A stretch of 771 nt of DNA. Origin: a phage. A program made the translations under genes and the position numbers. Shown one piece after another: positions 1 to 771 of this stretch. Location: sequence record AF039871.1; one strand, 5' to 3'. A model generated the notes under the pieces. The model did no database searches. It saw only the letters and a list, made by a program, of their open reading frames with translations, and had not been told where the DNA came from. How positions within the stretch are numbered: the stretch's first letter is position 1; each line of letters opens with the position of its first letter.

Positions 1-54
1 TAACAGAGAANACGAGCCAAAATGACTCGGTAATCAGAGTTCAGCTAATAAAAA

Positions 55-447
55 TCATTCATCATTCAGGCCTGGAACATAGATCCCAACACGGTTTAAC
101 TGTTCTTTAGCTTCTTTGAGAGTATCTGGAGTGTACTCCCAAATATCATCTTCCACCCGTAAAAGATGGGGCGAACAACCATCATCAGGCACACGACATA
201 TAGCCAAACCACGTGGATGGAACAAAGAGAAATTTAGTGCAACAATTAAACCCATAGCAGACAATTCATTCCAATCCAATTCCCATTCCCCAGCGTAGCC
301 TGATAGGAAAACACCAATACAGGGATCGTCTATTTGCTGCTCCGGAAAAGTGAAGGAGGCTTGTCTTACCCCCAACCAACGTTGTAGCAGCTTCTCTGCA
401 CACTTCACCAAACTAGGATCAATCTGACGCCAATATATTTGTTCCAT
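55..447 (-). CDS. Hypothetical protein, 130 aa; small, acidic, Trp-rich, no signal peptide or transmembrane segment evident; family not recognised; downstream member of a tandem paralog pair
   Basis: Uninterrupted 130-codon ORF on the minus strand, ATG at 447..445 and TGA stop at 57..55. AGGAGG sits 4 nt upstream of the ATG (minus-strand reading CTAAGGAGGCACAATG). This part of the read has no N calls. Counting the translation gives 21 Asp+Glu against 11 Lys+Arg, 5 Trp and 4 Cys, with a hydrophilic N-terminus (MEQIYWRQIDPSLVK). Its C-terminal ~30 residues are paralogous to the upstream gene's C-terminus, supporting a real conserved coding sequence rather than a chance ORF. Confidence 0.8.
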   Translation of the reverse strand: MEQIYWRQIDPSLVKCAEKLLQRWLGVRQASFTFPEQQIDDPCIGVFLSGYAGEWELDWNELSAMGLIVALNFSLFHPRGLAICRVPDDGCSPHLLRVEDDIWEYTPDTLKEAKEQLNRVGIYVPGLNDE

Positions 448-451
448 TGTG

Positions 452-457
452 CCTCCT
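452..457 (-). promoter_or_regulatory. Shine-Dalgarno ribosome-binding site (AGGAGG) for the 55..447 CDS
   Basis: Reverse complement of plus 447..460 reads CTAAGGAGGCACAATG: a perfect AGGAGG core, 4-nt spacer (CACA), then ATG. The SD overlaps the TAA stop (457..459) of the upstream gene by one base, indicating translational coupling. Confidence 0.75.
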
Positions 458-771
458 TAGGCAGTTAAACCCGGAATTTGATAACCAAANCGACGAAGTT
501 TTTGGATANCATCATTTACTTCTTCCGGTGAGTAAGACCAACCGTAATGTTCATTAACTTGAAAGCCAGGAGATTCACTGGGTTTTANAGTTAACANCAA
601 TACGGTGTTTATTAGGCATAANCAGCTTATAGNTTAAATGCAAAAACCAAGGCCAATTCATCCAACTCTTCCAAGCCGGNNAATCTCCNTCAANGNCATC
701 CNCTACCTGCACANTTTAACCAANTCAAGGGAGCTTCTCAATCTCCCCTTTAAANGCCANGGNGATTCNTG
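457..771 (-). CDS. Partial CDS (3' portion; 5' end lies beyond the window edge) encoding a paralog of the 55..447 product; reading frame disrupted in the low-quality, N-containing part of the read
   Basis: Minus-strand frame ending at TAA (457..459) is open for 58 codons (plus 633..460) and translates to ...LCLINTVLxLTxKPSESPGFQVNEHYGWSYSPEEVNDxIQKLRRFGYQIPGLTA*. This aligns with the C-terminus of the 130-aa protein (...LAICRVPDDGCSPHLLRVEDDIWEYTPDTLKEAKEQLNRVGIYVPGLNDE*), sharing W-Y-(S/T)-P, L, R-(F/V)-G, (I/V)-P-G-L. Further upstream a different frame (plus ~689..630) gives GLEELDELALVFAF, which aligns with GEWELDWNELSAMGLIVALNF of the 130-aa protein. The frame switch falls at N calls (622, 633), so a read indel is likely. 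The 5' extent is undetermined. Confidence 0.55.

Follow-up and report, generated by a model that had tools for sequence, protein, structure and literature searches.

T5.106 and T5.107, a tandem pair of two-module DUF7415 genes closing an early operon of bacteriophage T5

The 771-nucleotide stretch of phage DNA in sequence record AF039871.1, which as a whole we refer to as the window, carries the last two genes, T5.106 and T5.107, of the early operon T5.100-T5.107 of bacteriophage T5. Each of these genes encodes two fused DUF7415 modules (beta-alpha-beta-beta, ~50 amino acids each) followed by a C-terminal helix and a conserved tail, and the T5.106-T5.107 locus holds four DUF7415 modules in a row. 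Judged by their alignment and substitution pattern, the two genes are ancient tandem paralogs, both copies of which have been retained under purifying selection. We propose, with a probability of about 0.45, that T5.106 and T5.107 act as a non-enzymatic protein-binding factor, a covalent pseudo-dimer that possibly forms a hetero-complex, in the early phase of DNA or nucleotide metabolism. Annotation of both genes in the T5 genome dates from 2004-2005 and the family is already in Pfam and PHROG; the feature itself is therefore already known.

Paralogy and module architecture

That T5.106 and T5.107 are paralogs is supported by BLASTP comparison of the clean T5 proteins, which align end to end with a single gap (40/124 identities, 32%, E=2e-20). 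An earlier sequence-only reading of the window had proposed a tandem, same-strand pair of paralogous genes with matching C-terminal motifs. Both minus-strand genes are indeed present, and the motif pair is in frame and already significant within the window, where a 47-amino-acid piece of T5.106 matches the 130 amino acids of T5.107 with E=2e-5; the similarity only grows when the longer and accurate T5 sequence is used. A second matching block described in that reading, 'ELDELALVFAF', comes from a different reading frame and is a garbled version of what T5 actually encodes, 'WKELDEMGLVFALNY'; the similarity it was meant to document does run from end to end. The suggestion of an old duplication maintained under selection is likewise borne out. 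The DNA has diverged, the pair is also found in Klebsiella phage Sugarland, and dN/dS, the ratio of nonsynonymous to synonymous substitution rates (NG86), is 0.06-0.16 for T5.106 orthologs and 0.19-0.39 for T5.107 orthologs, with dS saturated in the most distant of the ortholog pairs.

The two proteins had been assigned to an unrecognised family. They are in fact catalogued, as DUF7415 and as PHROG 2502, and what stands of that description is that no function is attached to either entry. T5.107 matches Pfam PF24187 (DUF7415) with 104.8 bits (E=2.7e-30) and full-length T5.106 matches it with 114.2 bits (E=3.1e-33), each in two stretches; the model has 53 positions and a curated gathering cut-off of 27 bits. 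Residues 1-129 of T5.107 match positions 4-134 of the 134-position PHROG 2502 profile (E=2.6e-60), and a 42-amino-acid piece of T5.106 that lies in the window matches positions 95-134 (E=1.6e-14). The CRISPRi-ART re-annotation of T5 independently puts T5.106 and T5.107 in the same PHROG (PMC11879866).

A scan against NCBIfam gave no match, the anti-phage defence profiles of PADLOC-DB gave 0 families at E<=10, and there was no match to a catalytic family in Pfam, NCBIfam or PADLOC. Some GenBank homologs are named 'tail tube protein' or 'exonuclease (ACLAME 70)'; neither name has profile or fold support, and we regard both as annotation errors. The names given to another 120 homologs are in every case 'hypothetical' or 'DUF7415 domain-containing'. 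Our full-text literature search on DUF7415, PF24187, the PHROG numbers, T5.105, T5.102, bas27_0047 and Aeh1ORF299c returned no paper, and a search for T5.106 and T5.107 found no mention in main text, the only one found being in the CRISPRi-ART supplementary files.

When the four half-proteins were scanned singly, each matched DUF7415 with 52.9-65.1 bits (E=4e-15 and 4e-14 for the halves of T5.107, 7e-18 and 4e-14 for those of T5.106). A profile built from 22 N-terminal modules aligned in register with a profile of 59 canonical modules over 50 columns (hhalign P=8e-4, probability 24%), the alignment covering the Trp, the helix and the hairpin Gly. AlphaFold2 models of T5.107 (predicted local distance difference test 91.8, predicted template-modelling score 0.85) and of T5.106 (predicted local distance difference test 86.5) have the same order of elements, namely E-H-E-E in the first module, E-H-H-E-E in the second and a final H. 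The profile matches, the in-register alignment and the predicted secondary structure together argue for an internal duplication.

A profile search of 1.84 billion representative proteins returned 162 matches, of which ~20 were full length; most covered only profile positions ~56-110, in proteins of 60-200 amino acids. These proteins share the motif [IV]DWNxxSxxGL[IL]xRINxE[IV]LHPxGLAxxRxxxTGxSxGxLVxxDGxWxY, and this core is 50-70% identical across unrelated phage groups. Among 135 representatives, eight residues are nearly invariant (G66, L67, N72, H77, P78, G80, G90 and S92 in T5.107 numbering), all of which are kept in the second module of T5.107. In abbreviated form the family motif retained by that module is DWNxLSxxGL...N...HPxG...GxSP...WxY. 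In the second module of T5.106, Met replaces His77 and Lys or His replaces Gly80, and the N-terminal modules of both proteins are without most of the canonical residues; the full motif is found in one of the four modules. We discarded 12 long VCBS-like repeat proteins (P0054, P0078, P0085, P0100, P0112, P0121, P0137, P0148, P0176, P0181, P0189 and P0191), which carry the motif 'DGxWxYxxD...A.Q.L..G' and match only profile positions ~85-122, 3-13 times each. We treated such matches as motif-level noise and not as homologs; they probably represent a short convergent hairpin motif multiplied by repetition.

Sequence-profile searches of the PDB with the full-length and the core profiles returned nothing meaningful, and no solved structure with a matching fold was found in the PDB for the model.

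The read, the gene junction and the operon

The features of the window are as follows (window coordinates).

55..447, minus strand: T5.107, a complete open reading frame of 130 amino acids, stop included; the protein is identical to YP_006935.1.
Within T5.107: DUF7415 modules at residues 3-54 and 56-~97, a C-terminal helix at 107-120 and a conserved tail ending in 'VPGLNDE'.
457..771, minus strand: T5.106 (YP_006934.1, 142 amino acids), the upstream paralog, represented by its 3' three-quarters (~104/142 codons).
448..456, minus strand: intergenic spacer of 9 bases, TAA-GGAGG-CACA-ATG, read directly from the sequence.
1..31, minus strand: rho-independent terminator, with a stem-loop at 11-31 and a T-run at 1-10, closing the T5.100-T5.107 early operon.

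The window corresponds to positions 58219-58980 of the T5 genome (NC_005859.1) on the reverse strand, with 95.4% identity overall. Base-by-base alignment shows 100% identity from position 13 to ~580, and mismatches are confined to the first 13 and the last 190 bases of the window: beyond ~580 the read has N calls and departs from NC_005859 by at least four single-base indels, and errors are also present in positions 1-13. With this pattern of errors, the window is a rough, Sanger-like single-pass read of T5 itself and no diverged relative. T5.106 is in frame only over positions 457-600, which encode its C-terminal 47 amino acids and place its stop codon TAA at 457-459; the remainder up to position 771 is split across frames by the N calls and single-base indels of the read, and the window edge truncates the gene, ~38 N-terminal codons lying beyond position 771. 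Calls of open reading frames within 600-771 are unreliable owing to the read errors.

The junction of T5.106 and T5.107 reads TAAGGAGGCACAATG on the minus strand. The strong Shine-Dalgarno sequence GGAGG (452-456) abuts the T5.106 stop codon and lies 4 bases ahead of the T5.107 start codon ATG (445-447), an arrangement from which translational coupling of the two genes would be expected. According to the annotation of the T5 records, the early operon extends from a promoter after nrdD to a terminator before the origin-binding helicase gene. A terminator scan placed the latter at 8030-8010(-) of T5 locus L001, as ACCGAGTCATTTTGGCTCGGT followed by TTTCTCTGTA, and its position in the window was obtained from the T5 alignment; the terminator at 1-31 is also annotated in NC_005859 and AY587007. 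T5.106 and T5.107 are the final proteins encoded on one early transcript, and their amounts are probably similar. The earlier description of small acidic proteins holds for both of them: at 142 and 130 amino acids, the two T5 proteins are soluble and acidic, with isoelectric points of 4.5 and 4.8 and net charges of about -10 and -7, and the median isoelectric point of 135 DUF7415 core modules is 4.7.

We would also note some features of neighbouring T5 genes. Upstream in the same operon, T5.103 and T5.104 (L001 9380-9738) form a second tandem paralog pair of 60 and 61 amino acids, both assigned to phrog_5116, with the common motif DIF[VI]xxxG[ST]WCYR (BLASTP E=2e-5) and a 'DGxWxY'-like hairpin that loosely recalls the end of the DUF7415 module. 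T5.105 (L001 8887-9393) is labelled 'Sir2 (NAD-dependent deacetylase)' in RefSeq, yet its Pfam match (E=4e-20) is HAD_SAK_2, which is the HAD phosphatase domain found in 'Swiss Army Knife' RNA-repair proteins. It is T5.102 that is the true Sir2, and the label of T5.105 looks like an annotation slip in NC_005859. Between phoH and nrdA, T5.097 (L001 14145-14303) is a 52-amino-acid open reading frame annotated as 'tail length tape measure protein', a label that is implausible given its size and early-region location.

Relatives and history of the pair

To place the T5 pair among its relatives, genomic contexts were collected from annotated phage records and from contigs encoding homologs. By tblastn, the DUF7415 module is present in ~900 phage records, which include T5-like, P2-like and T4-like phages (of Klebsiella, Cronobacter, Citrobacter, Proteus, Aeromonas and Vibrio) and others. 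On the sequence matches, relatives with a single module occur widely in T4-like, P2-like and lambdoid phages.

In JD18-like and phiP4-3 phages, the single-module gene sits between nrdD and nrdG. In Klebsiella phage JD18 (L003 3995-4213) it overlaps both of these genes, and in Proteus phage phiP4-3 it lies at L013 2462-2725. The T4-like position between nrdD and nrdG and the location of the T5-like operon just downstream of nrdD could be a coincidence, the result of an insertion hotspot or a functional link. A glycyl-radical, NrdD or redoxin function, which the nrdD-nrdG position might suggest, was rejected, the sequences showing no glycyl-radical or CxxC motif. Providencia phage PSTCR6 has the gene after endonuclease VII, at the equivalent locus. 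The gene of Aeh1 follows rnlA, with td, denA and a homolog of the HAD gene T5.105 nearby, and that of RB43-like phages shares a block with DNMK, Acb1, NUDIX and a GmrSD_N protein.

P2-like prophages have the gene at the end of the early operon, after the gene for replication protein gpA and near DUF3850/ASCH. Here it belongs to a conserved five-gene block (L024-L026 ~5490-7270; L017 5001-6272; Aeromonas and others) in the order of a gene for 166-170 amino acids, DUF7415 (81 amino acids), a gene for 76-78 amino acids, DUF3850/ASCH and a gene for ~111 amino acids, with a variable DNA methylase in front. Fusions of DUF7415 to DUF3850 exist (P0082), and in one contig with an integrase, KilA-N and an excisionase-like HTH_17, which is probably a lambdoid-type prophage, DUF7415 is fused to a dATP/dGTP pyrophosphohydrolase. 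The Pfam domains co-occurring with the module among 135 representatives are dATP-dGTP_PPHyd (2), DUF3850/ASCH (2), Thymidylate_kin (1), Phage_Cox (1), PGDYG (1), DUF551 (1) and zf-C4_ClpX (1). A common theme of early operons and of enzymes handling nucleotides or nucleic acids is suggestive only.

Among T5-like phages, the order nrdD, small open reading frames, Sir2, small open reading frames, HAD, T5.106, T5.107, terminator and origin-binding helicase is kept in Tequintavirus and Epseptimavirus. Sugarland, from another genus of Demerecviridae, has the pair and is without the HAD gene. Its gp141 is the ortholog of T5.106 (hhalign E=5e-18), with the tail 'RRFGFQVEGLT' and a degenerate motif, and its gp142 is the ortholog of T5.107 (hhalign E=5e-20), with the canonical motif. 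Since the two Sugarland genes are orthologs of T5.106 and T5.107, the gene duplication appears to predate the split of Markadamsvirinae (Tequintavirus) from Sugarlandvirus.

Two metagenomic T5-like contigs, L029 and L031, each carry a single two-module gene. One has the order PhoH, NrdD, SIR2, HAD_SAK_2, DUF7415 (131 amino acids) and Obp, and the other PhoH, SIR2, DUF7415 (162 amino acids) and Obp; in L031 the Sir2 and DUF7415 genes overlap by 11 bases. The single-copy 131-amino-acid gene probably resembles the state before duplication. The simplest reading of the history is that duplication of the module gave a two-module gene, which was then itself duplicated, and that the upstream copy subsequently lost part of the motif. 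The T5-like records have exactly two such places per genome, and more distant relatives have a single one.

All the T5-like genomes examined have Sir2 in one operon with the DUF7415 gene or genes and upstream of them, including those that have lost nrdD, HAD and the small open reading frames. Some T5-like DUF7415 proteins (P0006, P0007, P0037, P0040 and P0047) are deposited under the names of E. coli, Salmonella enterica and Enterococcus faecalis; some of these records are very short contigs and others are ~110-kb contigs, and they look like phage genomes or phage contamination of bacterial assemblies.

Proposed role and comparison with known systems

How could two proteins built of four such modules serve the phage? 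The acidic composition of the family argues against nucleic-acid binding, and the small size of the module together with the absence of a catalytic family match makes a non-enzymatic role most likely. The high conservation of the motif across unrelated phages, in turn, points to a conserved partner. We suggest that the single-module relatives (60-100 amino acids) are probably homodimers, and that the two-module T5 proteins would be covalent pseudo-dimers of the module that makes up such a homodimer. T5.106 and T5.107 would be made together from one mRNA by way of the stop-codon/Shine-Dalgarno junction and might associate in a hetero-complex in which T5.107 bears the canonical binding surface. 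The complex would then bind a conserved phage or host protein early in infection and support phage growth.

A published knock-down phenotype bears on this proposal. In a CRISPRi-ART screen (Nat Microbiol 2025), T5.107 is among 17 T5 genes scored 'Fit', with a fitness of -2.90 and p=0.0215 (PMC11879866, supplementary files 1 and 16), and it is one of the few 'Fit' T5 genes of entirely unknown function (PMC11879866). T5.106 is 'Not Fit' in the same screen, at -3.28 and p=0.167 (PMC11879866). T5-like phages are outside the scope of HIDEN-SEQ and of a transposon-mutagenesis preprint.

Several points weigh against a protein-binding pseudo-dimer. The mechanism is drawn from composition, size, conservation and context only, and four residues that hardly vary in the family, Asn, His, Ser and Tyr, could make up a ligand or catalytic site spanning a dimer interface. 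Background values of the screen lie at about -3 to -4, which makes the T5.107 call marginal; its authors report that guide consistency is poor outside the T5 pre-early region (PMC11879866), and even the origin-binding protein was scored 'Not Fit' (PMC11879866). Guilt by association is weak as well, as fusions are rare (1-2 of 135 each) and neighbourhoods vary between phage groups. Finally, the internal duplication is itself weak by pairwise comparison, BLAST of the N-halves against the C-halves detecting no similarity; the hhalign probability for N- against C-modules is low; and the strong Pfam matches of the single halves may owe something to a seed alignment that perhaps already holds both module types.

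A wider form of the proposal, which we consider possible and put forward with more doubt, is that the DUF7415 module, for which there is no detectable PDB match, binds a highly conserved target (for instance a component of nucleotide, NAD or replication metabolism, or a conserved host factor) and is needed for full T5 fitness, and that the T5 pair forms an asymmetric hetero-complex, which arose from a homodimeric ancestor when duplication took place twice in succession. If this is true, DUF7415 would represent a new class of phage early effector common to T4-like, T5-like, P2-like and lambdoid phages. The module occurs in more than 900 sequenced phages and in many prophages of Gammaproteobacteria, with 50-70% identity across unrelated families, and the two-step duplication (of the module, then of the gene), the asymmetric loss of the motif and the marginal fitness signal of T5.107 make its function experimentally approachable.

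Many small acidic early phage proteins act by binding and blocking host factors, and an unlikely alternative is that DUF7415 is an inhibitor used in host takeover or anti-defence, which would block a host nuclease, a defence system or another host factor, the T5 copies having diverged for different targets or target variants. Being small, acidic and expressed early, the proteins fit such a role; relatives lie in accessory early regions beside known counter-defence genes, as in RB43-like phages, where Acb1 and NUDIX are a few genes away and a GmrSD_N protein is two genes away, and the location at the end of the P2-like early operon can be read in the same way, as can the weak resemblance to the anti-CRISPR AcrIC4, which is below the usual significance. 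The copies have diverged after duplication, with T5.107 evolving faster than T5.106, and the screen that calls T5.107 'Fit' in E. coli DH10B also calls the T4 antitoxin-like gene dmd 'Fit' (PMC11879866). What speaks against an inhibitor of this kind is conservation: the core motif is 50-70% identical across T4-like, T5-like, P2-like and lambdoid phages of many host genera, whereas inhibitors of fast-evolving defence proteins usually diverge quickly. Purifying selection on both genes is clear, and their syntenic position is fixed in all Demerecviridae examined, in no variable hotspot. Rather improbable, in our estimate, is a small ligand-binding or catalytic module, in which a pocket of the dimer or pseudo-dimer (Asn, His, Ser, Trp and Tyr) would accommodate or process a nucleotide-like molecule and act together with the NAD-dependent Sir2 and the HAD phosphatase. 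Such a pocket would account for the near invariance of the polar residues N72, H77 and S92, beside the Gly and Pro positions, among the 135 representatives, and for the full motif in only one of four T5 modules, a pattern typical of pseudo-dimers that retain one functional site. The module is also fused to, or adjoins, dATP/dGTP pyrophosphohydrolase, a thymidylate-kinase-like domain, NUDIX, NrdD/NrdG and DUF3850/ASCH, and in T5-like phages the gene always comes after Sir2, with the 11-base overlap in one contig. On the other hand, 50 residues are very few for an enzyme, no enzyme or ligand-binding fold in the PDB resembles the module, the conserved Gly, Pro, Asn and His are located at helix ends and hairpin turns of the model and may be purely structural, and the linkage to Sir2 is limited to one phage family and could be plain synteny.

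The sequence-only reading had also raised, and itself flagged as speculative, a link to the immunity or inhibitor proteins of polymorphic-toxin systems, which occur in tandem diversified arrays. The T5 proteins share the generic pattern of such proteins and nothing more specific, and the link is contradicted by the genomic context to the point of being effectively refuted. T5 is a lytic phage and the pair lies in the early region of its genome, and neither the T5 annotation over 8 kb on each side nor Pfam scans of the seven upstream genes revealed a toxin domain near T5.106/T5.107. The genes seen within these 8 kb on each side encode Sir2, HAD_SAK_2, NrdD, PhoH, the origin-binding helicase, HNH and ligase, a set for replication and nucleotide metabolism with no Rhs, CdiA, WXG100 or other toxin-domain gene among them. 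Nor is there an array: copy number is fixed at a pair, with one gene in distant relatives, and the orthologs are conserved under purifying selection and not diversified. Where the module occurs in bacteria, it lies in prophage early operons.

Compared with known systems, the T5 pair is like polymorphic-toxin immunity proteins in being small, acidic, cytoplasmic and tandem, and unlike them in having no adjacent toxin gene, a place in the early operon of a lytic phage, a fixed copy number and conserved orthologs. AcrIC4 (PDB 8dfo chain M) is the best structural match found, with a score below the usual significance and 16% identity; it has no sequence-profile match and was not recovered by Foldseek, and no evidence ties DUF7415 to CRISPR. 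Much closer to the T5 pair are the single-copy two-module genes of L029 and L031 (131-162 amino acids), which have the same architecture and the same position downstream of Sir2, with or without HAD, and upstream of the origin-binding helicase, but comprise one gene where T5 has two. The 131-amino-acid protein combines the canonical motif as found in T5.107 with the T5.106-like tail 'GFQVPGLTC'.

The single-module members, such as the 72-amino-acid JD18 gene product, Aeh1ORF299c and the product of the 81-amino-acid gene after gpA in P2-like Aeromonas prophages, consist of the ~50-residue module with the motif that is kept in the second module of T5.107, and like the T5 proteins they are acidic and encoded in early operons. 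The T5 proteins differ from them in having two modules per chain, a C-terminal helix, the conserved '..G.x[IV]PGL' tail and two tandem genes, and in that most of the motif of the single-module members has disappeared from three of the T5 modules, namely both N-terminal ones and the second one of T5.106.

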